A stretch of 64,000 nucleotides of DNA from Eledone cirrhosa (Eukaryota), in contig OZ024740.1 in the NCBI GenBank assembly GCA_964016885.1, positions 116,870,001 to 116,934,000 on the forward strand, in the 5' to 3' direction. Below are positions 1,261 through 63,781 of the stretch, piece by piece (position 1 is the stretch's first letter; the number at the start of each line of letters is the position of its first letter). The translations under genes were made by a program, and so were the position numbers. A model generated the notes under the pieces. It had not been told where the DNA came from. It saw only the letters and a program-made list of their open reading frames with translations, and ran no database searches.

Positions 1261-1775
1261 CACGAGTTGGTTGTTCCGTTGATAAGTATCAACTGGAACA
1301 CTCGTCGCCGTAACCGACGGAGTGACTTGTGATTTTTGGTTATCGCGTTGAGCTCTACTGAGGAACGACTCCAACCGTGACTATTCCCACTGAAAAGTTT
1401 CGTGAAATAGTCTTTTTAAGACTATATAGAGCATTTGTAGTTTTTCCAAATTGAACTTTATGTTATTCTGAGTTAAGACTCTATTGGTTTTTTCCCTGGA
1501 TTTCACAAAATCTGTGGATAAAATCTCTGTCTTGATTTTTTTTTTAATTGAGTTTGAATTATTTTCCCATATCTTACGTTAATTATTTTCCATTTTGACG
1601 TTATAGTCACTTATATATTATGAAATGCTGTTGGCTTCTAGCTCACATTAATTTCTCTATTTTCATTTATATATATATATATATATATGTGTGTGTATGT
1701 GTGTGTGTTTATATATATGTGTATGGCTGTGTGTGTTCATATATGTGTGTGTCTGTATCTCTCTCTATATATATA

Positions 1776-7017: not shown

Positions 7018-7153
<136 letters not shown>

Positions 7154-7159
7154 TATATA

Positions 7160-8106
7160 TATTAATTTTATACATAATTGTGTATGGTTGACGATATATT
7201 TAATCGATTTCCACGTGCTATTGAAATGCTGGGTAAATATTATATAGCTGTTGATCGCGAATAGATGGCTGTCGTTTATTTATCTATTGTTTCTTCATAG
7301 GTGCCTTTTAATCTTATAGCCTGGTTTAATTGTTTTTTTGTGTGGTTGATTATGCCTATTGGGGGAGGAGATGGTGTATATATCTTATCAAATGATTCTA
7401 TGTACATACTTTATTGTATATTGATCTGATTATTTAATTAATTAATTCGTCATTGAGACACATCGTGAATGGTTGCCAAAAACATATATATATATATATC
7501 TATGACTTTGTCTAGTTTATGTATATGTAAATCTTTATATTTGATAATCTCCCATAAGGTTGAGATGCAATTTAGGCAATATTAGGCTGCGCTTTCTAGC
7601 AACCAGCCCACTCACCGTAAGGCACCAATCACATTCTTTCTGAGTTGACCACTGCCACATCACAGTTCTTAGCCATTTTGAATTCGTTTCTGGCGGGGAT
7701 CATTTAAGAAAAATCTTCGTCCAAGTGAGTTTGTTTCCTGATGATTTCGAAGCTCGTGAATTTATCCTTGATCGGATATTTCCAAAAGCGAAAGAAACCT
7801 CATGGGGTAGAAACGTAATCTTGGTATGTTTATATACATTTTTTCTTCTAACTTTAATTTTATACCTAATTGTGTCTGGTTGACAATATATTTAATCGAT
7901 TTCCACGTGCTATTGAAATGGTGGGTTAATATTCTATAGCTGTTGATCGCGAATAGATGGCTGTCGTTTATTTATCTATTGTTTCTTCATAGGTGCCTTT
8001 TAATCTTATAGCCTTGTTTAATTGTTTTTTTGTGTGGTTGATTATGCTGATTGGGAGAGGAGATGGTGTATATACATCTTATCAAATGATTCTATGGACA
8101 TACTTT

Positions 8107-8112
<6 letters not shown>
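7160..8112 (+). mobile_element. HHR-containing ~692-nt unit, ~1.4 head-to-tail copies in (TA)n (retrozyme / non-autonomous PLE-like)
   Basis: 7166-7420 repeats at 7858-8110 (ccacgtg at 7211 and 7903, period 692); homologous to 61204-61935. Confidence 0.85.
7733..7814 (+). ncRNA. Type I hammerhead ribozyme
   Basis: Stem I gtttc/gaaac, core CTGATGA (7738-7744), stem II tttcg/cgaaa with a long insert, GAAA, near-palindromic stem III ACCTCATGGGGT, GUA cleavage after 7809. Confidence 0.85.
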
Positions 8113-8185
<73 letters not shown>

Positions 8186-8884
8186 TTATATATATCTGTC
8201 TATTTATGATTATATGTCAATAGAAAAATACTGAAAACATACTTCTAAGGTAAATTAAAATGAATATAGTATTGCGTATGTCAAGTCAATTGTTTTTATC
8301 TATGAAATATATATACCATTTGTTTATAAGTATGTATATATGTATGTATTGACACATACACACACAAAGTTGACCTACGGGATTTGAACTCAGAAAGCAG
8401 ATAGCCTTAACGAATGCCATAAGCATTCTATCCGACGTTCTAACGCCACATCTTTATCGCATATATCTTTGTTAAAAGACTACGAAAACATAACAAAAAG
8501 AAAACAAAAACACACACACACGTAAATTTACCATCTTCTAGTTTGTACTTATTTGCCCAATAATAAGTTCAATACAAAGCCTTTCAAAATGTTTTATATA
8601 TCGTTTTGAAAGAAATATCCTATAGTAGGTTTTATATACAAAAACACCTTATTTGTAGACTTTGCTCTTTGGGAATACTTATATTTTTCTTAATACATTG
8701 TTACATGCATCTATGTAACAGTAACAGTAACAGTAACAGTAATTTTCGTCAATTCATATTCAGTGTAACTTGAACAAACCCAACAAAACTTCGAATATAT
8801 CATCAGTCATCCGAAAGGAGTCGATAACTAGAAAACCCACACATTGAGCTGCTATTCCACTACATCTAACAGTAATATATATAT

Positions 8885-22141: not shown

Positions 22142-22564
22142 GAGTTAAACAAGATTCAATGATTACATCAAAGAATGAGTTTTACAGTAGATTAGAAGCA
22201 CTCTACAAAAAAATATTTTCCAGAGTTATTAATATTAAAATTCAAATATTAATAAAATAGATGTTCTTGTGATCAATTAAATTTTATTATACATATTTCA
22301 GAGGTACTTGAATCAGGTTCAACAGTATGTCCTCATCAGATAAAATAAAATAAAATGATACATGACATACCCTGAGATGTTAGATGGTTAAGATTTAATC
22401 AAGGTAGTTGATTAAATCTTAACCATCTAACATCTCAGGGTATGTCATGTATCATTTTATTTTATCTGATGAGGACGTACTGTTGAACCTGATTCAAGTA
22501 CCTCTGAAATATGTATAAACAAATTTAATTGATCACAAGAACATCTATTTTATTGATATTTGAA

Positions 22565-22572
<8 letters not shown>
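22137..22572 (-). mobile_element. Fold-back insertion with ~170-bp arms, HHR in each arm
   Basis: 22232-22402 is the inverse of 22408-22572; a related degenerate copy at 44645-44815 has core CTGACAA at 44691-44752 (-). Confidence 0.9.
22281..22346 (-). ncRNA. Type I hammerhead ribozyme (mirror copy 22459-22524 +)
   Basis: attttat-CTGATGA-ggacatactgttgaacctgattcaagtacctct-GAAA-tatgta-TA-ataaaat; 7-bp stem I. Confidence 0.85.
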
Positions 22573-22604
<32 letters not shown>

Positions 22605-22710
22605 AACAAGTAGGACCCCGATGGCTGAGCTCAAGCAGCGTTATGGTCCATCTGGTTCCTTACCACATTTCCTTCGTTATATATATATATATATATATAC
22701 ATATATATAC

Positions 22711-22775
<65 letters not shown>

Positions 22776-22778
<3 letters not shown>

Positions 22779-23169
22779 TAGAAAGTGGGTTTTTTTTTAC
22801 AAAATGAAAAATAACCGAGGTGTCCTACACGAGTGAAAGTATAAGGAAAAAGAGATGAAATCGAAAATGCAACTGGAGTCTTATTTTAAAAAAAATATAT
22901 ATATATTTATTTGGTTCCTTTACCGGTTTCGCAGTTCTTCTGCTTTTCAAAAGGTGAGTTGAAATGGAGGGTCTGTGGTTTTTCTCACATCTGTGGTTTT
23001 TCTCACCCAGATGTGAGAAAAACCACAGACCCTCCATCTGAACTCACCTTTTGAAAAGCAGAAGAACTGCGAAACCGGTAAAGGAACCAAATAAATATAT
23101 ATATATAAAAAAAAAAAATAAAAAAAAATGAGACTCCAGTTGCATTTTCGATTTCATCTCTTTTTCTTT
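22776..23169 (-). mobile_element. Fold-back insertion with U3-A8 variant HHR (other copies 43416-43622 -, 63320-63525 +)
   Basis: Arms ~22850-22995 and ~23010-23169; duplicated ctgtggtttttctcac at the turn. Confidence 0.9.
23047..23084 (+). ncRNA. Minimal HHR, UUGAAAA core (mirror copy 22917-22954 -)
   Basis: cctt-TTGAAAA-gcag aagaa ctgc-GAAA-ccgg-TA-aagg; palindromic stem III ACCGGT. Confidence 0.75.
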
Positions 23170-23235
23170 ATATATATGTATATATATATGTATATATGTA
23201 TGTATGTATATATATATATATATATATATATGTAC

Positions 23236-23286
<51 letters not shown>

Positions 23287-23289
23287 TAT

Positions 23290-23488
23290 AACGAAGGAAA
23301 TGTGGTAAGGAACCAGGTGGACCATAACGCACCAAAGTACTCAATACTTAGGGTAGTAGAGTGGGTAATAGGAACGAGTAGGACCCCGACGACTGAGCTC
23401 AAGCCGTTTCGACGGCTAATTCTGGACTGAATTGTCCAGAATTAGCCGTCGAAACGGCTTGAGCTCAGCCGTCGGGGTCCTACTCGTT

Positions 23489-23765: not shown

Positions 23766-24154
23766 GGAGGTGAGTTTTATTGTAGTACAATAAAGCAATG
23801 CAGATATCGGATAAGAAGCACTCTACAGTTTGTGGGACTGGAGTATGCATAATATAAGATCAAAAGATGGTTAAAGGAGTTCCATATATTTTATTATGCG
23901 CATTTCAAAAACAAACATCATCATGCAATAATATTTGTGTTTTCATCAGATAAAATAGGAGAACATGATATGAAGGCTAAAAAACACTTGTGGATAGTGC
24001 AGTTTTAAATCAACATATTTTTAAATCAACATATTTTTAAATCAACATATTTTTATCTGATGAAAACACAAATATTATTGCATGATGATGTTTGTTTTTG
24101 AAATGCGCATAATAAAATATATGGAACTCCTTTAACCATCTTTTGATCTTATAT

Positions 24155-24158
<4 letters not shown>
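23762..24158 (-). mobile_element. Fold-back insertion with HHR in each arm
   Basis: 23848-23955 is the inverse of 24051-24158; 16-bp triplication near the turn; shares agaagcactctaca with the 22137-22572 family. Confidence 0.9.
23887..23957 (-). ncRNA. Type I hammerhead ribozyme (mirror copy 24051-24117 +)
   Basis: tattttat-CTGATGA-aaacacaaatattattgcatgatgatgtttgttttt-GAAA-tgcgca-TA-ataaaata; perfect palindromic stem III ATGCGCAT. Confidence 0.85.
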
Positions 24159-24705: not shown

Positions 24706-24815
<110 letters not shown>

Positions 24816-24859
24816 TTTTTGCATATATACTACTTGAATTATTACCCTACTATAAGATC

Positions 24860-25822
24860 AACAAAAGCGATGGCCTACTACCAACGCCTTCCAACCAGCG
24901 TCTTCCTATACATAAACGTAGCAGAAAGAAGACGAGTGCATCCGAGCATAAAGCGATAGGGACACGTAACGGGCTACAGCACAATAACATGCATAAGAAC
25001 GGTCACCCTGATAGCACAACCCTTACCAAACGTAGAAAGACACGGAATCGCCACCGTAACGCCCTATGGTTCCATCCTCCCTACTCTCGGAGTGTGGCCT
25101 CCGACATACCCCGGATATTCTTCGAAGCCTTAGAGAAGAACTTCCCACCCAACCATAAGTATAGGAAAATCCTTAATAGGAACAATATAAAAATATCCTT
25201 CTCTACTACTCCTAACCTAGCAGACATCATAGGAACAACTAATCACAGTAAGATCACCAAGACACAGCACCTTAGCACCGATACACCTACACCTGACAAC
25301 AACTATATCAGCCTTAACGACTCCCTAGCAGCACCCAATAGTGCTGGCAACAGCCACTACAGACGCAACCAACATAACCGCGACACGACTGGGGAATATG
25401 CAGGTGACCCGCACGGGTCACCGGACGGCAACGGAAGACGCTGTGGCGTGCGGAATGATAATGATACTACCCTGCACGCAGTGGGTTATAATGGTACCAA
25501 TGACAGGTGTAGGGCGTAGGTAACAACATAGATAGCAATAATAATAGCCTTACCTTGGGAACTAGAAGGGACCGCGACCGAAATTGCAACTGCCGTGACA
25601 GGGGACGCTGCCCCTTTAGGGGTAACTGCCTGACTGATAGGGTTATTTATAGGTGCACCGTAACTAGCCATAATAGCGTTAAACATTATATAGGGGCTAC
25701 CTCTGGCCCGTTCAAATATAGATTTTGAACACATCTCCACTCTTTCGCAAACAAGAAACTAAGACACTCCACTTCGCTCGCGAACTACATCACATCATTA
25801 AAAGACTCAAACATCACATATA
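24860..25822 (+). pseudogene. Penelope-like element fragment (RT C-terminal region plus Cys-rich linker and GIY-YIG endonuclease)
   Basis: RNALWFHPPYSRSVASDIPRIFFEALEKNFPPNHKYRKILNRNNIKISFS (ORF 24989-25519). After a frameshift, from 25585: CNCRDRGRCPFRGNCLTDRVIYRCTVTSHNSVKHYIGATSGPFKYRF*THLHSF..HSTSLANYITSLK. Ends in (TA)n. Confidence 0.9.
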
Positions 25823-26365
25823 TATACATAATATATATATGCATAAGCCTCGTTATGTATGTATGCATATATACGGGTAGCTAGTTGAGTTCTTTGTTTG
25901 GCGCGAATTCCTTTGTTTGAATTCAGCCACGAAACCACGTGTTTTAGTCTACGATGGGAATCTTCCTCTTTTTCATTAGCGGCCGGGTGTGAGAACAGCA
26001 AAAACTGCTGGATACAGTAGTGATGGCTATCACACATTGCATAGACCTATCTTATAACTTACGCTTCCCGCTGAAGACGTATAATAGCCCGGTTACGTAA
26101 ATATCTGCTGATATTACGTGGCATTCTGAACATTACGGATATAATATCTACATTTGTGAAGTCATGTTGCACAGAAACGATATCATCCAAGAGTTGAGAT
26201 TTTTACTTTTATCTCTACCAAAACTCAGCTACCGTACCTGCTATTAACTAAATGTGTCCTCTCTGAATAGCTGATTGCAACTGCATTGTTGCAATTCAGC
26301 AATAGACGTTGACCGGAGAACATTGGCTTAATACCAGCGATCTTCGTTACTTTTATATTATATAT

Positions 26366-29300
26366 CTTGGTTGTCCATCGTAAACGATGATGACATCTTC
26401 TTTACTTTAGTTCCCGTCTGCCATGGGCACGAAGGTGGCTATGGAGGCCGATCCTTGACTTGCAAGTCCGGGGACAGTGGGGGGCAGGGGAAGAGACCGG
26501 AGTCGCTTGGGGCAGCTGTTGATGCCTTTCTCCTCCTTTCACGGGCCTCAGTGACCTCTTCCCGTCTCTTCTCTTCAAAAGAGTCTTTGGCGCGTCTGGT
26601 AAGGGTTCGCCACTCAGTCCTGCCCTGAGCATGAGACTCGAGTTGTTTTGGCGCGATTCCAGTGTTGTTGATACTGGACTCCACGCAGTCTTTGAACCTT
26701 TTGAGAGACCTGCCCCGCTTTCGTTTCCCCGAACAGAGTTTCCCATACACCAGTTGCTTCGGAAGCCTGTGATCGTCCATCCGGATGACATGTCCCACCC
26801 ATCGAAGTTGGCTCTTCAGTATCATAGCTTTGACACTGGTTATCTCAGCCATGTCAAGAACTTCGATGCTGGAGACCTTGTCCTGCCACTTGATATTCAT
26901 AATTGACCGCAGGCTGCGCACGTGGAACCGTTCCAGCTGCTTCAGATGCCTTCTGTACAGGGTCCATGTCTCACATCCGTAGAGGAGGCTGGTGAGAACA
27001 ACGGCCCTGTACACCTTGAGTTTGGTGGACTGCCTGGTGTTGTGCTGGTTCAGGACGCATGTCCTCAGGCGGCCGAGGGCTTGACTGGCCTTGCAGATTC
27101 TGGCATTTATCTCCTTTTTAAGGCTTCCATCGCTGCTGATGACACTGCCGAGGTACTTGAAGTCGTCCACTGTCTTTAGCTGGGTGCCTCCGATGGAGAT
27201 GGAAGGAGAGTGGGCGACGGAGACAGGTGCAGGCTGGAACAGAATCTCAGTCTTGCCAAGGCTAATTGTGAGACCGAAGAGGCAGGAGGCCTCCGCGAAC
27301 TTGTTGACGATGACTTGGAGGTCAGACTCCATGTGGGCGATGAGGGCACAGACGTCAGCAAAAAGTGCCTCCAGGACGGTCCTCTGCACGGTCCTTGTCT
27401 TGGCCGTCAGGCGCCGCAGGTCAAACAGGGAGCCGTCCAGTCTGTATCGCAGATACACTCCGTGCTCGAGGTCCCTGGCGGCATGATTGAGCACGCAGGT
27501 GAAGAACAAGTTGAAGAGGACGGGAGCCAGCACTCATCCTTGCTTGACGCCGTTGGTGATTCCGAACGGCTTCGATGCCTCTCCGCCGAGCGCACCTGCC
27601 CGGTCATGTCGTCATGGAATTTCCGTATCAGTTTCACAAACTTTGTCGGGCATCCAAACTTCGACAGATCGACCATAGGGCCTCCCTGTTGAGAGTGTCG
27701 AATGCCTTCGTCAAGTCTATGAAGACGGCAAAGAGGTCCATGTTCTGCTCGACACACTTCTCCTGCACCTGGTATACAGAGAAGATCATGCCGACCGTGC
27801 TGCGGTTTGGGCGGAACCCACACTGGGCCTCAGGCAGGTTGTCCTCCGAGATGTTGGCAATGAGGCGGTTGAGCATGACCCGAGCCAGGGTTTCCAAGCG
27901 ATGGACAGGAGAGAAATGCCTCGATAGTTGCCACAGTCAGTTTTGCTGCCTTTATTCTTAAAAAGCGAGACAACTGTGGCATCCCTGAAGTCTTTGGGCA
28001 CCTCTTCTTCCTCCCATATGCTCACGAGGAGGGTGTGGAAGGCCCCAGGGCACTGGACCGGCCGACTTGAAGATCTTGGCAGGAATCCCCTCCTTCCCAG
28101 GGGGCTTTCCTGAGCTGGTCTGGTTGATTGCCTTTGTGACTTCATCCAACGTGTGTGTGTGTGTGTGGGGGGGGGGGGGGGGTCGAGGCTGCCGACTACG
28201 GGCTTCTGTGGGACCTGGTCGAGGGCGGCAGGGTCGACAGTGGAGGGTCTGTTGAGCAGGTTGCTGAAGTGCTCTCTCCACCTCGAGTTTATGCTGCTCT
28301 TCTCCTTCAGCAGGATCGAGCCGTCAGAAGACAGCAGCGGTGTGGTGACAGGCTTGGGGGTCCGTAGACGTCCCCGATGGCGCTGAAGAATATCTTGGAG
28401 TTCTTTGTGTCAGCGTATCTCTCGACTTCTTCGGCCTTCTTTTCCCACCACTTTTCCTGCATTCTGCGTAGCGCTGCTTGGGTCTGCCTCTGGAGGTGCT
28501 TGAAGCGGTCGCGCTTCGAGGTGGAGGAGCCGACATTCTGCCACTCAATGAAAGCCCTCCTCTCTCGTCCAGGAGTTGTCTGATGCGCTCATCGTTTTCA
28601 TCAAACCAGTCCTAGTGGACTCTCTTCCTCGGCCCGATGGTTGCCTTGGCTGACTCTGTCACTAGCGACCTGAACTGGTCCCACTGATGAGTTGGGGGTC
28701 CGGTCAGTGGTCCATGGGCAGTCAGCCGGCCGTCCAGGTCTTCTGCGAACGCATCACGATGCTCTGGCTGCTTGAGTCTTGCGACGTCGAAAGCTGGCCT
28801 ACAGACTTGCGATACGTCGGGGTGATGTGCAGTGACAGGATGGTCCTGACAAGGCGATGGTCGGTCCAACACTCTGCACCACCCATGGCTCTGGTGATTC
28901 TGACGTCACGGATGTCCCTCCTGCTGCATATGGCAAAGTCAATCATATGCCACTGTTTGGATCTGGGGTGCATCCATGTCGTCTTGAACTTGTCTGCCTG
29001 GCGGAACAGTGTGCTGGTGATGGTGAGGTCGCAGAAACTCAACAGTAAGAGGCCGTTGGAGTTCAGCTTCCCTGTGCCGTGAGGTCCCAGCACGCCTCTC
29101 CAGTTGCTGCTGTCAGACCCGACTCTTGCGTTGAAGTCACCCCCCCCCCCAGTAGAATAAGTTTATCGCTTGGGGCGACGCCCTTCACGAGTGCGTTGAG
29201 TTCCCCGTAGAAAGCGTCCTTAGCTTCATCGCTGCTGGTGAGAGTGGGGGCGTACGCGCTGATGACTGTGACATGCAGAGATGGGTCGAGGGGGAAGCGG

Positions 29301-30390
29301 AGCTTCATCAGCCGCGCACTCACATGTGTTGGGAGGTATGGTAGCTGCTTGCAGAGCGAAGTCCTGATGGCCAGGCCTAGCCCGTGGATTCTGTCCTCGT
29401 CCTTTGCATTGCCATTCCAGAAGAAGGTGTAGCCTCCTTTCGGTTCTGCTACTGATCCTTCTTCGGCAAGTCTAGTCTCGCTGAGGGCGGCTATGTCAAT
29501 CCGGTAGCGAGCTAATTCCCTAGCTATGAGGGCAGTTCTTCTCTCTGGCCTCAAGAAGGTTTCCCTATCCATGAGGGTGCGCACATTCCATGCGCCAAGA
29601 ATCAAGTTCTTCTTTCTATTATGTTGGTTTCGACCGCTAGCAAGGATAAAACCGCCAGCCTCGGTAGACTGGCCGGCTTTGTGTGGGACGAGCATTTGGT
29701 TAGGGCTCCTTTTATCGCCCCTCCCCTCGTGCGAGGGTGAGCAGTGCTCCCCTGAAAAGGGCTGCTCAGTCGCCTGGTGTGGCCGCCCCCGTGTGGGTTT
29801 GAGACTGGCAACTCCCAGAGGTTACCCCCACCTGTTACCTCCGCCTCTCGCCCATCGCCGCAGGGCTTTGGGTGTGCACACTAAAGAAGAAACCTGTGCG
29901 GGAAAGGTTTATAGTGGGAGGGCCAGTGTACAGTGACGGTCCCACTCACTCGGCCGCAGAAGCCAGAATCCGGTGGTACGGAGGACCGTCACGACCAGGG
30001 ACTTCCTTGGCTGCAGTGGATGGCCACGACGTCTGTAGTCCCTTTCCGTGCGTTAGCGCTCCATACCGCTTGCTGTCGCCGGCTTCGTGACTGTTGGGAC
30101 GATGTTGTCCTCCTCCACTCACTCCGCCGGGTCCAGTCTTCGCATGCAGGGGCAGGCATACACTATCTAACTCACCGAGGGGTTGCAGGCCCGTCCGGCT
30201 ACCCTCAACCTGGTTCGGCCCGCCAGCCAAGGCAGTTTATCAGGGTGTGGCCGCTGTCGCATGCTACAGCTTCTTGGGGCCACCGGTGAGAGCTGAGTGT
30301 CAGGTGGGACCCAATGCAGGACGAGCTGTCCTGAAAAGGGCATGGCTTAGCCCCCCCTACATAGGTACATGCCCCTCCCTGACACCCCAG
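26366..30390 (-). mobile_element. Near full-length RTE-clade LINE, GC-rich
   Basis: ~700-nt 5' UTR, single EN-RT ORF, short 3' hairpin gtcatcatcgtttacgatggac. Confidence 0.95.
26402..29695 (-). pseudogene. RTE ORF (APE endonuclease, reverse transcriptase, C-terminal C2H2), multiple frameshifts
   Basis: GAWNVRTL..AALSETRL..SAYAPT; TDHRLV; NYRGISLLS; QCGFRPNRST; FIDLTKAFD; LFADV (YADD motif decayed); FKYLGS; QLRWVGHV; CPRTCKSRIGLHSHLRAH. Confidence 0.95.
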
Positions 30391-42418: not shown

Positions 42419-43080
42419 TATGCTTGTGCGTGTGTGTTTGTGTGAGTGTGGGGGCTGGGGGGTTGGAGGTGTATGTTCAATTTCCTGTTTCACTAAACCT
42501 TACATCTGTACCTAATTAAACTATTAAACTTACTCCCGTTAAAAAAAAGTATAACATTGAAAATGAAGTTTTATATATAACGATCTTCAGTTAAAGTTAA
42601 GTTACATGTTTGGAAATAAATATACTGTAACGAATTAATAATTTATTAGGAGGTTATTCTGACATTATATGGCTGGTTGTGTCAGGGCTAAATTCAAGGA
42701 ATTTAAATGATCAACATCACCTTTTTTTATTATTTTTCTCTGCATTTTTCTTCGTAAGTAATAAGATTTAAAACCTTTAACGATAAATTTCTTGTTCAAT
42801 GTAGAGCGACTTTGCATATTTATGTATGCATGCATTTATGTATGCATACGTATATATATATATATATATATACATATACGTATATATATATATATATACG
42901 TATATATATATATCTATATACATATATATACACACGCATATATATATATATATATATATATACACGTACATACACATGCATACATACATATATATATATT
43001 TACTCTCATTCTGAGGCAGTTTTGTATGGCGCCAGTTTGTAATTTTAACTCGGGAATTTTATATTCTCCGAGAGAGAAAA

Positions 43081-43161
43081 GCCTTCTGACGATGATCTCT
43101 TTCTCGTTGGAAATCCGCTTGGATTATCTATTTGCTTGGGATCTGAAACCGCGGTAAGGGC
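43081..43161 (+). ncRNA. Type I hammerhead ribozyme within (TA)n-flanked insertion 43000-43357
   Basis: gcctt-CTGACGA-tgatctc..gggatct-GAAA-ccgcgg-TA-agggc; palindromic stem III ACCGCGGT; stem II insert resembles that of the 693-nt family. Confidence 0.85.
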
Positions 43162-43357
43162 ACATATAGTAGGTACAGTGAATTTTTTGGAATTTAATTA
43201 TTTATTATTTTTAAAGATATTTTCTGTGTTTACACTCCCTTGATTTAATATGTTCTGGCTTGTTAATTTATTAAGTTGCCAATGAACCACACTGGCATAC
43301 GGTCAGACTATACTTGTGTCCCTGTGTGTATTAATTACATGTAGGAACACATACTTT

Positions 43358-43423
<66 letters not shown>

Positions 43424-43659
43424 GTGAGGTTTTTTTTACAAAATGAAAAATAACCGAGGTGTCTTAAACGAGTGAAAGTAAAAAGAAAAAAAGATGAAAT
43501 CGAAAATGCAACTGGAGTCTTATTTAAAAAAATATATATATATTTATTTGGTTCCTTTACCGGTTTCGCAGTTCTTCTGCTTTTCAAAAGTAGAGTTGAG
43601 ATGGAGGGTCTGTGGTTTTTCTATATATATATATGCATGTGTATGTATACATACATACA

Positions 43660-43695
<36 letters not shown>

Positions 43696-44245
43696 TATAT
43701 GTGTATGTGTGTGTGTGTGTGTTGGGAGAGTCATTATGCCAATAAAATACACACACCTGTCGAATTTTACTTGATGTATTATTATTACACATACATATGG
43801 GCAACATTGGTGTGGCGTGAAGAGATGAGACTGATATGCATGGGCGGCTGCTGGTCCTCCATATAAACCTTGCTCGGTTTTGTGCATTCTGACTTGCATA
43901 TACATTACCCAACTTGGAATGTATCTCCCTGCAATCCCATAAACCTATCGAAGATTTTTTTTATCGATTTTTATCGATTCATGAACTCTTGTGATGGGCC
44001 AGGTTAGTGTTCAACCTGTTTGTATATATCGAAGTTGTTGAATTATTGGGGCAACATGCTTTTGTTCGCCTTATTTTTGGTGTCACACTTCATTAACGTT
44101 TTGTGATCACTCTGGTTAAAAATGCATTAATTCTCACATCATTGAGTGTTTCATGACTGCCTCTTATAATTCGATGAGCATCTGCTACAGTGCGGCTTCA
44201 ACTTCGGTTATACTCATTATCATCATTATTATTATATATATACAT

Positions 44246-44812: not shown

Positions 44813-44872
<60 letters not shown>

Positions 44873-45068
44873 TATATATAGGAACAAGTAAGACCCGACG
44901 GCTGAGTTCAAGCCGTTTCGACGGCTAATTCTGTACAGAATTAGCCGTCGAAACGGCTTGAGCTCAGCCGTCGGGGTCTTACTTGTTCCTATTACCCACT
45001 CTACTACCCTAAGTATTGAGTACTTTGGTGCGTTATGGTCCACCTGGTTCCTTACCACATTTCCTTCG

Positions 45069-45144
<76 letters not shown>

Positions 45145-54606: not shown

Positions 54607-55882
54607 GCTTCTGGTTTTATAATTTCACAAAGTTTTACCAATAGAGAGAGAGTCGGTTTCTAACATAGACACAAGACTCTCTCATTGGAATTTACACAAC
54701 ATCAACTAGGTAGATATGTATGTCTGCATATCTGCATGTGTAGATATGGATGTTATTGTATGTGTGGATGTGGATGTTTTGAGTTGTATGTGTGCATGTG
54801 TATATGCTTTGTATCTGTACATGTGTATATGCAGTTATTAGATGCAACATTTTTTGAATGTTTTACATATTTTTACTGTTCCATTAATGGATTGTACTTG
54901 TAATTTCCTAACTAGTTGTGTTCTTTCTGTTCCTGTGAAGCCTAGCTTCTCAAGATTTGTATTGAGGCAGTTACTAACATATCCCAGTGCCCCAATAATC
55001 ACAGGCATAAATCTGAAGGTGTAATCAGGGTGGAGTATCTGCAGATTTCTCATCAGCTCTGCATAAATATTCTCCTTTTCATTAATCTTTGATATTATAT
55101 TGGCATCTGCTGGGCAGCTAATTTCCACTACTGTGCATGTTTTCTTCTCCCTGTCCCATATCATAATATCTGGTCTGTTATGCCTGCATTTTATTGGGGT
55201 TTTTACTGGAACATTCAACGAGTACTCTTTCATATTAGCTTTTAATGTGTTTATTATCGGGGCTATCTTTTTTACGAACTGCATTGTACAGTGTTTTGGC
55301 CACTACATCATGCCTCATAGGTAGATAGTACCGCGATGACATCTTTGGACAGCTGCTGATGACATGGGTGATATCCTCGATGTTAGTTCTGCAGAGTCTG
55401 CACTTGTTATCACATCTAGGTGTTTTGCCGGCATCCCTATCTCTTTTGTGAATCAGGTATTTCGTGCTAATCTCCTGTTCCTGGATTGCAAAAGCGTATC
55501 CTTCAAAGTGGGAGCCAATATAGCGGTTGTTGGTCCAAGATAGACTACTTTCCTTATCTATATTACTCTCACTCTGGAGCTTCCTGGCAACATATCCATG
55601 CATGATTTTTTGCTGATAGGCATGCAGTTTTTCATCCATGGATTCAATGCGATACTGCTGAGCGACATACCTGGGTGTGAGTTTTTGATTATCACACAGG
55701 GAATATCTCTCAAGGAGTTCCTTCCCAACTCTCATGATCTTATCTGTTTCATGCAGATAGACTTGCTCGAGAAACGGGCTCCTACGCTTCGAGGTTCGTA
55801 GATGTTGTCGGAGAGATATGGTGCGACATTCAAATGTTGTCTGGACTGATGTTAGGCCTCTGCCTCCCTGCTTACGTTTCAA
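54607..55882 (-). mobile_element. 5'-truncated R4/Dong-type non-LTR element (CCHC knuckle plus RLE endonuclease) in (TACA)n
   Basis: GGRGL; QEQEISTK; CRLCRTNIEDITHVISSC; RHD; frameshift near 55270; RPDIMIWD..VEISCP..EKENIY..PVIIGALG; stop at 54838; (GTAT)n on both sides. Confidence 0.9.
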
Positions 55883-55964
55883 GTATGTATGTATGTATGT
55901 ATGTATGTATGTATGTATGTATGTATGTATGTATGTATGTATGTATGTATGTACGTATGGTGAT

Positions 55965-57730
55965 ATGTCAGGTCACCAGTTGGTGCTACTGGTAACATGT
56001 ATCCCAGTACAACCTGTCTCATGGTCGGGTCGTTGGCGACTAAACTGGCAGCCCCAACAAGGTTTCTTGGTGAGGAGGGTGACTTTGGACATCCTGCAGG
56101 ACTAAAAACAAAACCTGTCAAAGGGCAAAGGACCTCTTAAAAGTCAATGGCCATCCAAAATCACCGGGAGAGATGACCCCTTAGCCTTTGTCAAGGCAGA
56201 ATTCTAGCAGAAGGTAAACTCTGATATAACACCTGCAACCCTGATGGTATCCAATGATGTTGACTTGTTCTTCTTTTTGGTAAATATCATCTTGGTCAAG
56301 AGAGTGGGACTGGCTTTGTGCAGTGCATTTGCTCACTATAAAAGCTTCACGGCACAGGCATTGCTTTATATCTGGGGATCTTTCTGCACTTGTCGTCGCA
56401 TGGTACCATGGGCCCAGCACTATATGACAATTATTGTCACAAGTGTAGTGTTTGTACCAGAGTTTTCAAGTCGCTGGCTTGACTAAAAAGTCACACTCGT
56501 TCAGCGCATCGGTAGGAGTTCTCCTACATGGATATAAAGTAGTGGCCGTACTCGAAAACGAGTTGGCAGCCACCATGTACGTATGTATCTATGTCGCATG
56601 GTCGAGTCGTCGGTGACTAATCCGGCAACCTCACCAGGTTTACTTGGTGAGGAAGGTGAGTTTGGACACCCTACAGGACAAAAAACAAAACTTGACAAAG
56701 GGCGGAAGAATTCATAAGGGTCAACGGCCATCCAAAAGTGTGTAAATATGTATATACACATGTACGTATATATGTATATATATGTATGTGCGTAGGTGCA
56801 TGTGTATGTATATGCGCAGGGACATATACATAGTCGGGCTGGACACCAATCGCGCGGTTAAACCACTGGGAGTGAAGGACCCCTAGCCTTTCTCAGAGCA
56901 TTCTTCTAGGAGAGGGCAACTCAGTAAACTGGGATAACTCCGATATAAAAGCTGCGGCTCAGTAGTTACTGATGATGTTGATCTTTTCTTCTTTTCGGAT
57001 TATAGCTACTGTCGCTCAGAGAGTGAGATTGGCTCAGTACACAGTCTTTCCTTACTTTAAAAAATATCTTCACGCACAGGCATTGCACGATAGAATTAAT
57101 TAATAATTATTGATAATGGTATATCATGCAATGGCCATACTTGATAACGAGGGGCAGCTATCATGTATGTATGTATCTATGTATGTATGTCGGGTCACTC
57201 TTGAGTGCTACTGGTAACATGTAACCCAGTACAACCTGTCGCATGGTCGGGTCGTTCGCGACTAAACCAGCAACACCACCAAGTTTACCTGGTGAGGAGG
57301 GGGATTTTGGACATCCTGCAGAACGAAAAACAAAACATGACAAACGGCGGAAGAACTCATAAGAGTCAACGGCCATCCGAAAGTGTGTAAATATGTATAT
57401 ACACATGTAACGCGCAGTTAAACCACTGGGAATGAAGGACCCCTAACCTTAGTCAGGGCATTCTTCTAGGAGAAGGCAACTTAGGAAACTGGGATAACTC
57501 CGATATAAAACCTGCGGCTCAGTAGTTACCGATGATGTTGATCTTTTCTTCTTTTCGGGTTATAGCTACTGTCGCTCAGAGAGTGGGATTGGCTCAGTGC
57601 ACAGTCTTTCCTCACTTAAAAAAAGAATTTTCACGCACAGGCATTGTACGGTAGCATTAATTATTTATAATTATCAATAATGTTATATCGTGCAATGGCT
57701 ATACTTGATAACGAGAGGGCAGCTATCATG
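55965..57730 (+). mobile_element. Three RTE-derived non-autonomous copies (55965-56425 diverged, 56592-57163, 57188-57730)
   Basis: Same blocks as 18455-19062 with differing internal junctions; GTAT repeats precede each copy. Confidence 0.8.
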
Positions 57731-58070: not shown

Positions 58071-58202
<132 letters not shown>

Positions 58203-58391
58203 AACGAGTAGGACCCCGACGGCTGAGCTGAAGCCGTTTCGACGGCTAATTCTGGGTCCAGAATTAGCCTTCGAAACGGCTTGAGCTCAGCCGTCGGGGT
58301 CCTACTCGTTCCTATTACCCACTCTACTAACCTAAGTATTGAGTACTTTGGTGCGTTATGGTCCACCTGGTTCCTTACCACATTTCCTCCG

Positions 58392-58433
<42 letters not shown>

Positions 58434-60280
58434 ACACACATAGTTCTAGTGGGTATTGAAGGTAAAATGTATTCGCGATAAACAACAAACAGTACTGTTA
58501 ACACATTAATTTTCCCTTTTGTTTGTAGACTGGTACCTATAGAACCATTGGCGGTGAATGAGCAGAGTCTAGAAGAAATTGGAGGCGCGTGGCCTTGTGG
58601 TAAGGGTGTTGAATTTACGAACATAATGTCATGGGTTCGATTCCTGGGCTGGTTTGCGTGTTGTGTTCTTGAGCAAAACGCTTCATGTCACGTTTCTCCA
58701 GTATATTCAGCGGAAAATGAGTACCAGCAATAGCTGGGTGTTTAACCCTGTGATGGACTGACGTCCTGTCCAGGGGGTGGGGGTGGGGGTTCTTGTGATT
58801 ACAGTCGCTTCACGCCATGAAACCGTGATAAGCACCGGCCTAACGAGCCATCTGGCCTAAGACAGACATTGGTTTCTCTATAAGAAATTGGCTGTTTAGG
58901 TAAGGAAATAAAAAGGTTTGGCTAGATATAAATGCCACGACAGAGCCCCTACAATTGACATGATGAATCTATAGATTCCTCTAAATGCAACTATGTAGGT
59001 TCTTCTTGCACCAATAAATTAAAAATTTGAATTAGTAAAGGAACGAAGACTATTCGAGTGATGTGTTTCAAGCTGTTTGAATATTTCTGTTCGAATTCTA
59101 GAAGTAGGTGTCCTACCTCAGTAATTTCAGAGATATGTTAACGTCTTGCACAGGTGAAAAACGTGTATTTTGTTCATTAAAATATATGTATGCTAACAGA
59201 AGGATCGGTTTTATCAGCGAGTGTTACTCAGAAATGAAAACCACATGGGCAATAAAAGTAAAGACGTCTATCATGATTCTATTTACATATACAAACAGCT
59301 AGATTTTGTTTATATCATTTTGCGATATACTTCCTCTCTCGACATATGAGTAATCAATCATTACTTTTATCGAGCTTACATTGGGTATCAACTTGTGATT
59401 AGGGAGACCGGAGGCCAGATTAAGTGACCCAGTAAGATGATACTTTAATCATAGCTCACTAACAAACACAAAACAAATGTGTACAAATGATATCCCAGAT
59501 GCTAAATGGGATTGGAAGTTATGTTAAGATAAGCTACACTGAGATATCAAAGCGAAATACTAGAGGCAGAGAAAACTTGTGATAGTTTATGGTGACAAAA
59601 TTCAGTTCAATAACATTTACGAAATGGAATATGTTTGTGTGAAATGAAAAATATATTCTAAAGTTTCGAAATTAGCAACTTCTACTCCTTAGCGTGGCCT
59701 AATGGTTCGAATACTTGACGTAGGATCGTAATGTCGTCGGTTCGATTCGTGGACAGGCTGCAGCGTTGTGTTCTTGAGCAAAACACTTTTTTTCATGTTG
59801 CTCCGATACACTCAGCTGACAGTGAGCACCAGCAGTAGCTGACGAGTTAATCCTGCGATAGACCGGTGTAATGTCCAGGGAGTGTCTTGTACTCTCAGTC
59901 GCTTAATGCCAAGGAAATAGGGGATAAGCTCCGGTCCGATGAGCCTTCAGCTTAGAACAAACTTTAATTGAACTTAACTAATTAGCAATTCCTACAACAC
60001 AACAAATTTGTACCTAGATTAATGTGCCTAGATTTTCTAACAGGAAAATGTCTCACATTTGGGGAAGGTACATAATTGATTATATTGACTCCGGTGCTTC
60101 ATTAGTACCTATGTGATTGAAAGAAAGAGTCGACCATGGAGTGATTCGAAATTAGAATGTAATGGAAAGAAACTAAATACTGTATGACATTTGTCCGGTG
60201 CCCTACCAATCCTGTCAATCTATCCCAATTTTTACTCGTTTTAATAAGCGCGAGAGAAACTTTGCTTCATTATATTACCA

Positions 60281-60960: not shown

Positions 60961-61011
<51 letters not shown>

Positions 61012-61018
<7 letters not shown>

Positions 61019-61926
61019 GTAAGTCCAAAGAATCATTAGGTAAAATATATACAGTATTTCCTCTCCCAATCAGTATAAATCAACCACATAAAAAAATCAT
61101 TTAAACGAGGCTATAAGTTTAAAATGTACTTATGAAGAAATAATAGACAAATGATACAGATTATTTTCCGCGATGTACAGCTATATGACACTTATCTGGG
61201 ACTATGTCTAATTATATGTATATACCCTTTGAATTTAATATATACTCCCGTAAGGTTGAATTTAGGCAGTATTCGGCTGCGCTTTCTAGCAATCAGCCTA
61301 CTCGCCGACAGGCACCAATCACAAACTTTCTGCCTTGACCACTGGCCACGTGATGGTTCTTAGCCATTTTAAATTCATTTCTGGCGGGGATCATGGTAGG
61401 AGAAACTGAGCCCAGTCTGGGGTATCTCCTGATGAGTTCCAAATCTCGTGGATTTATCCAGGACTGGGTATATCCAAAAAGCGGAACGAAATCAACGGTG
61501 GTAGAGACTATGAGAATTCTAGTAAAATTTATGTACATTTTTTCTTCAAACTTATATTTTGTACCTAATTCCGAGTAGTTAACTATTTGTCTAGTCAATT
61601 TCTACAGGCTAGAAGAAATAATTAGATAAATGTCATATAGCTGTACATCGCGAAAAATAATCTGTATCTTTTGTCTATTATTTCTTCATAAGTACATTTT
61701 AAACTTATAGCCTCGTTTAAATGATTTTTTTATGTGCTTGATTTATACTGATTGGGAGAGGAAATACTGTATATATTTTATCTAATGATTCTTTCGACTT
61801 ACATTTTTATATATAGCTCTGATTAATAATTATTTAATTAATTCTTCATTGAGCCACACCGTGAATGGTTGCCACACTCATATATGTATCTGTGCTTATG
61901 TCTAATTATATGTATATACCCTTTGA

Positions 61927-61935
<9 letters not shown>
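61012..61935 (+). mobile_element. HHR-containing ~694-nt unit with terminal redundancy and an inverted 5' arm
   Basis: atgtctaattatatgtatataccctttgaattta at 61204 and 61898 (period 694); 61012-61198 is the inverse of ~61624-61810. Confidence 0.85.
61425..61507 (+). ncRNA. Type I hammerhead ribozyme
   Basis: tctc-CTGATGA-gttcc..ggaac-GAAA-tcaacggtgg-TA-gaga; covaries with the 7733-7814 copy. Confidence 0.85.
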
Positions 61936-61997
<62 letters not shown>

Positions 61998-63231: not shown

Positions 63232-63288
<57 letters not shown>

Positions 63289-63726
63289 TATATATATAAA
63301 TATATATGTATAAATATATGGAGAAAAACCACAGACCCTCCATCTCAACTCTACTTTGGAAAAGCAAAAGAACTGCGAAACCGGTAAAGGCACCAAATAA
63401 ATATATATATATTTTTTTAATAAGACTCCAGTTGCATTTTCGATTTCATCTTTTTTCTTTATACTTTCACTCGTGTAGGACACCTCGGTTATTTTTCATT
63501 TTGTAAAAATAACTTCACTTTCTAATATATATATATAACGAAGGAAATGTGGTAAGGAACCAGGTGGCCCATAACGCACCAAAATACTCAATACTTAGGA
63601 TAGTAGAGTGGGTAATAGGAACGAGTAGGACCCCGACGGCTGAGCTCAAGCCGTTTCGACGGCTAATTCTAGTCCAGAATTAGCCGTCGAAACGGCTTGA
63701 GCTCAGCCGTCGGGGTCCTACTCGTT

Positions 63727-63781
<55 letters not shown>

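Follow-up and report, generated by a model that had tools for sequence, protein, structure and literature searches.

Insertions of Penelope-like elements (PLEs) are recognized by 5′ truncation, partial tandem copies, inverted 5′ copies, and a tail at one end only, a one-sidedness that has already been described qualitatively (PMC8557442). Reverse transcription by a PLE enzyme begins at two internal sites of the RNA, the spacing of which corresponds to the tail (Frangieh et al. 2024; PMC11167929), and the protein of the anole PLE is predicted to be a dimer (PMC11167929). The role of the hammerhead ribozymes found in PLEs has been called "still unclear," perhaps parasitic (PMC8557442), with an "absence of in vivo evidence" (PMC4209133), and ribozyme cleavage was dispensable for the anole element in vitro (PMC11167929). 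A palindromic helix III is a mark of hammerheads that act as dimers, and a ligated circle has been proposed for the RNA of hammerhead-bearing PLEs and retrozymes (PMC4209133, PMC7229834). Li et al. 2026 (bioRxiv 10.64898/2026.07.22.740005) already argue that retrozymes are non-autonomous PLEs. In the cited texts, the PLE mechanism of retrozymes is deduced from co-occurrence and phylogeny, whereas here we read it from the insertion ends themselves.

We analyzed a repeat of 693 nt that occurs twice in a 64,000-nt stretch of contig 1 of Eledone cirrhosa (the window), whose genome is 3.0 Gb and microsatellite-rich. Like the animal non-LTR retrozymes (PMC7229834; Li et al. 2026), it is non-coding and GC-poor (33-35%), repeats head to tail, and has one type I hammerhead per unit, a short palindromic helix III, and no LTR layout; some copies hold at least two hammerheads. 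It also co-occurs with coding PLEs, as these retrozymes do, and one subfamily has a U.U at the base of helix II, like axolotl HHR_Amex2 (PMC7229834). The unit is longer than the 170- to 400-nt invertebrate and axolotl circles of Cervera and de la Peña 2020 (PMC7229834), but 693 nt lies inside the 51- to 972-bp range of Li et al. 2026, so it is not the unusually large retrozyme that had been supposed. It differs from known animal non-LTR retrozymes in that its copies are mostly shorter than two units, no long arrays were seen, and helix II is extended by ~40 nt; here it is read from genomic DNA. Plant LTR retrozymes are likewise non-autonomous, hammerhead-processed RNAs of 600 to 1000 nt, but their type III hammerheads, LTRs, PBS/PPT, and 4-bp target duplications were not seen in the repeat, which has a type I fold and ragged 5′ ends. 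With EN+ PLEs, including non-autonomous Chlamys elements such as MRC1 (PMC8557442, PMC11167929, PMC4209133), it shares 5′ truncation, partial tandems, an inverted 5′ copy, and a one-sided tail; two internal 3′ termini downstream of the hammerhead, a short helix I, and a palindromic helix III are further features that it has in common with them, and (TA)n targets are shared with the Hydra and Naiad clades (PMC8557442). Unlike EN+ PLEs, it has no open reading frame (ORF), and its tail is 110 to 120 nt, compared to the published 30 to 40 bp. We consider it probable that the 693-nt repeat is a non-autonomous PLE (an animal non-LTR retrozyme) whose transcripts, partly cut by its ribozyme, are copied in trans by the reverse transcriptase/GIY-YIG endonuclease of a PLE.

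The repeat and its hammerhead

Copy 1 (subfamily A; locus L001) occupies 7162-8115 (+) as a single arm of 1.38 units. Its first 260 to 290 bases recur after 692 to 694 nt, and 7132-7421 matches 7825-8115 at 91.8% identity, which bears out the original prediction of ~1.4 head-to-tail units with a period of 692. The 5′ end is a truncation ~45 nt past a cut position, and the 3′ end is the fixed End1 described below. Target (TA)n lies on the 5′ side at 7078-7161 and on the 3′ side at 8116-8195. Copy ends had been described as UA-rich patches running into (TA)n, and copy 1 does sit between (TA)n at 7078-7162 and 8111-8195. The direct arm of copy 2 (subfamily B; locus L061) extends over 61193-61938 (+), or ~1.07 units, and ends at End2 (+435), with an internal End1 at 61815. 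It had rightly been seen as a diverged homolog of ~1.05 units with a period of 694: 61193-61815 is 74.5% identical to 7497-8116 of copy 1, and there is a 52-nt redundancy at that period. What had been overlooked is an inverted 5′ arm at 61006-61197 (-), which is the reverse complement of 61624-61815 (96.4% identity) and has its outer end at End1 (+312). Each of the window copies holds one hammerhead.

The repeat is dispersed in roughly a thousand or more copies. The 19-base word directly after the cut had 467 exact matches in the genome, and its reversed control had none; since 25 of 68 independently fetched sites carried the exact word, we estimate ~1,270 to 1,300 subfamily A arms. For detailed mapping we used 97 of the first 100 matches, one of which was dropped as a duplicate; the resulting 96 A arms come from contig 1 and the start of contig 2 and are not a random draw. 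The three matches left out run through the cut. Arms with several hammerheads exist (L017, L325, L011, L020, and others), and neither the 40 best matches nor the first 100 pattern matches included a long genomic array. Besides subfamilies A and B, a third subfamily (L201:9098-9757 and L224:2977-3270) is ~68% identical to A and shows compensatory changes in stems I and II. The prediction that the unit is non-coding also held: its longest stop-free frame is 102 codons, and tblastn of the unit against a PLE ORF gave no match. The unit has no ORF for a reverse transcriptase with GIY-YIG and is thus non-autonomous. Contigs of two sequencing runs, of unspecified kind, contained the 693-nt family and its End1.

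Two further features of the unit are recorded here. Words at 7622-7700, which precede the hammerhead, are conserved in A and B and altered in the third subfamily; we take them to be CCAAT-like and GC-box-like, possibly an internal promoter. Unit position +113 (7229 and 7921 in the window) is hypervariable (C 52, T 30, G 23, A 8), and its base changes from one pass to the other in 13 of 37 arms versus ~5% elsewhere, which could reflect a reverse transcription error hotspot or a modified RNA base.

A motif scan placed one hammerhead in each window copy, with predicted cuts after 7809 and 61503, exactly where they had been proposed. The type I hammerhead of copy 1 spans 7733-7814 (+) and consists of stem I (7733-7737/7810-7814), the core (7738-7744), stem II (7745-7749/7789-7793) with a 39-nt extended hairpin, the GAAA at 7794-7797, and a near-palindromic stem III (7798-7807). 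The hammerhead of copy 2 spans 61425-61507 (+), with its core at 61429-61435. A local Rfam scan returned no hammerhead for copy 1 and a sub-threshold Hammerhead_1 match for copy 2 (13.5 bits, E 3.1); both hammerheads score poorly because helix II carries an extra ~40 nt (39 to 42). In the Rfam scan of the whole window, the 150 listed of 242 weak matches were all microsatellite or hairpin noise. Unguided RNAalifold on 13 natural copies from the three subfamilies recovered the type I three-way junction, with both sides changed in 7 of 21 pairs and a core that is invariant except at N7; this result is supporting rather than statistical, because the sequences are related and were picked for an intact core. 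Among 112 subfamily A sites, the core was intact in 81, and the base pair at the foot of stem II was U.U in 40 and G-C in 25. The claim that the stems differ in sequence yet still pair is therefore upheld by the covarying pairs, except that the U-A at this position in copy 1 is atypical, being a rare variant found in 2 of the 112. Helix III is palindromic in each group, with different letters. Compensatory stem changes around an invariant core support, at the level of sequence comparison, the predicted selection on the ribozyme fold across the three subfamilies. Stem II of subfamily A contains a word resembling a pol III B box, which neither B nor the third subfamily conserves.

These observations bear on whether the repeat might instead be satellite-like, spread and duplicated as DNA, its hammerhead-like motif having lost the ability to cut. 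Minimum free energy folds of single sequences did not form the full hammerhead, the Rfam score is below threshold, and 8 of 9 frog retrozymes showed no cleavage in vitro according to the cited text of Li et al. 2026 (bioRxiv 10.64898/2026.07.22.740005), all of which would suit such a repeat. The invariant core and the compensatory stems argue against it, as do the polar structure of the insertions (fixed 3′ ends, ragged 5′ ends), their inverted arms, and the one-base-precise 5′ ends at the scissile bond described below. We regard a satellite origin as scarcely credible.

Two fixed 3′ ends and their pairing

To map copies on a common scale, we numbered the unit from the predicted cut. The 3′ ends of the 96 A arms fell at End1, +305 (±3), in 75 cases and at End2, +424 (±9), in 12, with 9 elsewhere and none at the cut; 81 of the 87 defined ends run into TA. 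Subfamily B ends at the homologous +312 and +435. In copy 1, End1 lies at 7421 (and again at 8115) and End2 at 7540, which delimit a "tail" of 119 nt at 7422-7540 (+). Copies had been thought to start and end at circularly permuted points of the unit. They do end at different points, as copy 1 (End1) and copy 2 (End2) illustrate, but free circular permutation is contradicted by the concentration of 87 of 96 arms at two fixed 3′ sites. By analogy with the PLE enzyme of Frangieh et al. (PMC11167929), End1 and End2 are likely two internal start sites of reverse transcription. Simple microhomology with the target was rejected as the cause of the 3′ ends, because arms do not mainly end at a longer TA patch that lies between End1 and End2. 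Both UA-rich start sites could pair with the target here, whereas the anole element primes without homology (PMC11167929).

The two ends were used together. We examined 117 A loci and 55 B loci and tallied two-armed loci in which both outer ends are defined; the remaining two-armed loci have one end elsewhere. One End1 was paired with one End2 in 12 of 12 such A loci and 12 of 13 such B loci, or 24 of 25 together. In the single B exception (L261), End2 sequence lies right behind the called end, beyond a deletion. A locus with multiple arms (L308) has two adjacent End2 arms, and its outermost ends are End2 and End1. Fixed 3′ ends with an optional, one-sided tail, 5′ truncation, an inverted truncated 5′ copy, and (TA)n targeting are all traits of PLE insertions, in agreement with the PLE-like machinery that had been predicted.

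As a separate observation, a GGGAG word before End1 (7360-7370) and a CTCCC word after End2 (7549-7556) are kept in A, B, and the third subfamily. In the predicted fold these words pair and enclose both start sites, making this modeled structure a candidate for enzyme binding. The unrelated family C, described below, has a similar word after its own End2.

5′ ends at the cut and the form of the template

Exactly at +1, the first base after the predicted scissile bond, we found the starts of 9 of 96 A arms, where 0.34 were expected from a background of 0.0036 per nt (P ~1e-10, or 7e-8 over 693 sites). None of these starts is preceded by the A that the template has there. In 8 of the 9 arms the neighboring sequence lacks the upstream half of the ribozyme, and the ninth has this half only within its own arm. 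We considered that a later insertion at the TA of the cut site had broken longer copies; this is rejected because the upstream half is absent and no A precedes the junction. With a control word in mid-unit, 0 of 30 arms started at its first base. The excess is weak in subfamily B, where it was seen at 1 locus (L270/L271) of 30 pattern loci (3 of which are chance matches) and at none of 9 more. Exact stops at the cut also occur after a second unit, in L159, L028, and L310 of subfamily A and L270/L271 of subfamily B, and L017 stops within one base of the cut on its third pass. By hand count, ~3 of 24 second arrivals at the cut stop there in A, similar to the rate for first arrivals. The +1 ends are likely a record, preserved in the genomic sequence, of hammerhead cutting of real templates in living cells. 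This 5′-end excess is clear, whereas Frangieh et al. report no RNA-seq ends at the cut for the anole PLE in the cited text (PMC11167929).

A second cluster of 5′ ends lies at -16 to -25 from the cut (7785-7794, the 3′ strand of stem II), where 9 of the 96 arms of A and 3 arms of B begin; it is perhaps a structural pause.

Most arms pass the cut. Eighty-six of the 96 run through it seamlessly, 32 exceed one unit, and the longest is 2198 nt. At subfamily-diagnostic sites, repeated passes within an arm match at 565 of 633, compared to 64% between arms; when two noisy sites are left out, the figures are 526 of 564 versus 66%, the difference between passes then being close to the background of 5%. 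At 138 of 153 such sites, direct and inverted arms carry the same base, and private variants are common to both passes of an arm (7 in L017). This agreement indicates a single sequence variant as the source of both passes and of both arms. Among fixed differences between passes 1 and 2, which would be the mark of a single linear dimeric master, only a poly-T site (in both directions) and +113 recur, in a set of loci mostly picked for their likeness to the window copy.

Reverse transcription on a circular or multimeric RNA had been proposed, partly from the permuted ends. Arms of up to 2198 nt support a template of more than one unit. Permutation does not by itself show a circle, however, since the 3′ ends correspond to two fixed PLE start sites, and the 5′ ends result from truncation. 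The classical retrozyme cycle, in which the enzyme rolls around a covalently closed 693-nt circular RNA as the main template, would explain the seamless passage of the cut in arms of up to 3.2 units, the private variants shared by both passes, and the lack of long arrays among the matches examined. In addition, animal retrozymes form circles (PMC7229834), and the predicted circular fold (62 to 64% paired) is somewhat stabler than 25 shuffles (z of -2.4 and -3.4). Against this cycle stand the arms that stop at the cut on their second or third pass (L159, L028, L310, L270/L271, and L017), which are better fit by partly cut linear oligomers than by a closed circle; on a circle already traversed once, the cut region would presumably sit in an RNA:DNA hybrid, unable to fold. 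A circular junction is also indistinguishable from tandem DNA. We therefore judge rolling on a circle to be an improbable main mode of synthesis and prefer partly cut oligomers.

Linear inheritance from such oligomers shortens copies and lets passes diverge, yet the lineage has persisted through 25 to 30% divergence with concordant passes. A length-resetting step thus likely exists, either a ligated cut-to-cut monomer circle or a seamless strand transfer, and a circle is plausible in this role.

Coding PLEs and other families with the same layout

Coding PLEs are abundant in this genome (31,712 candidates in a first-look search). One of them (L198) has an open 927-aa Hydra-type ORF, a 582-bp pLTR, and a U3-A8-type hammerhead, read by eye; the hammerhead is followed by End1, End2, and then the ORF, the same two-end layout as in the 693-nt unit. 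Pfam and PDB sequence searches with this ORF gave no match; its identity rests on Atlas look-alikes (HTH_animal, GIY-YIG, RVT_1) and on RWK, DKT, and CxCX5C motifs, which are assigned to the Hydra clade (PMC8557442); Neptune was rejected as its clade. Another coding PLE family has a U3-A8 hammerhead with a U.U at the base of helix II and a palindromic helix III. In the window itself, 24815-25830 (+) holds a broken, 5′-truncated coding PLE fragment of the Hydra clade beside a TA run, with relatives in the genome that have open ORFs of >900 aa.

Such elements raise the question of whether the unit is only the pLTR or UTR of a longer coding PLE, with its copies being 5′-truncated remnants. The order of hammerhead, End1, and End2 shared with L198 fits this reading, as does the resemblance of frog retrozymes to pLTRs (Li et al. 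2026, bioRxiv 10.64898/2026.07.22.740005), and the copies examined are a fraction of the total. The unit, however, closes seamlessly on itself for up to 3.2 turns, contains no coding remnant, and is not followed into a common non-unit sequence or ORF by any arm in ~125 A and 55 B loci. By blastn it had no similarity to the pLTRs or 3′ regions at 47 loci (17 long PLE and 30 GIY-YIG) out of tens of thousands of candidates, a sample that yielded no mobilizing partner for it; unit matches in L201 and L224 are separate insertions of the third subfamily. The caveat attached to the original prediction, that the unit might be such a pLTR, was thus not realized in any locus examined, and we hold this explanation to be very unlikely. 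It is possible that the 693-nt unit arose by an ancient ORF deletion.

The insertion near 43000 had been taken for a distant relative of the repeat. This is incorrect: 43001-43360 (+) has no blastn similarity to the 693-nt unit and belongs to a separate 496-nt hammerhead family (family C; period from L112) with the same layout as A and B. The window copy is 5′ truncated, with a hammerhead at 43081-43161, a predicted cut after 43156, and fixed ends at +94 and +206. A first-look search of the genome gave 3,322 family C candidates, and two-armed insertions of this family follow the same End1/End2 pairing rule.

The window contains several other insertions. At 1350-1432 (+), a motif resembling a type I hammerhead lies in an unrelated AT-rich insertion that ends in TA; to judge from its stems I and III, of 6 and 7 bp, the motif is possibly an efficient monomeric ribozyme. 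Head-to-head pairs of hammerhead-like motifs with a 6- to 8-bp stem I and a short palindromic stem III, ending in (TA)n, occur at 23849-24157 and 22240-22570, and their motifs identify them as putative further small PLE-type families; similar motifs are present in L199 and L206. Several further short repeat families inserted in TA, which contain internal or head-to-head inverted repeats, lie at 22709-23330, 43349-43700, 44816-45119, 58136-58442, and 63244-63777. A GC-rich, frameshifted endonuclease-reverse transcriptase LINE remnant at 26400-29900 (-) is presumably RTE-like, from its motifs, and another LINE-like remnant is found at 54838-55972 (-).

We propose the following model for the 693-nt repeat. 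Head-to-tail RNA would be made from the repeat, and its weak hammerhead, which is probably dimeric given the palindromic helix III, would cut ~1 in 10 of the sites met by the enzyme. A PLE protein, probably a dimer, would nick both strands of (TA)n and begin cDNA synthesis at internal positions of the RNA, with End1 serving one target strand and End2 the other. Synthesis would then run 5′-wards through uncut or re-joined ribozyme sites until the enzyme falls off or reaches a ribozyme-made 5′ end; end-to-end hops are an alternative to linear, partly cut templates on later passes. Ligation of a cut-to-cut monomer into a circle, or seamless strand transfer, would reset the length. A fuller version, to which we give about an even chance, holds that the insertions are an in vivo record, across the genome, of the PLE reaction on a ribozyme RNA: the hammerhead cuts about one site in ten and sets the 5′ ends of templates, the enzyme pair uses End1 and End2, one per strand, on one RNA variant, a ligated cut-to-cut circle resets unit number over tens of percent divergence, and unrelated families (693 nt and 496 nt) follow the same rules.

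The element class is not new. What the repeat adds is its insertion record, namely, likely in vivo cleavage and the pairing of End1 with End2; a literature search of main texts, with subscription papers outside its reach, found no published report of the 693-nt family or of PLE or retrozyme insertions that start at a hammerhead cut. Genomic 5′ ends that are precise to one base argue for a ribozyme that cuts real templates, which has been an open question for the hammerheads of PLEs. Through its two fixed internal ends, a retrozyme is linked directly to PLE enzymology, beyond co-occurrence. Finally, because a short ORF-less RNA and open PLE ORFs are present in one genome, the choice between circle and oligomer and the End1/End2 strand rule are both testable in vitro.
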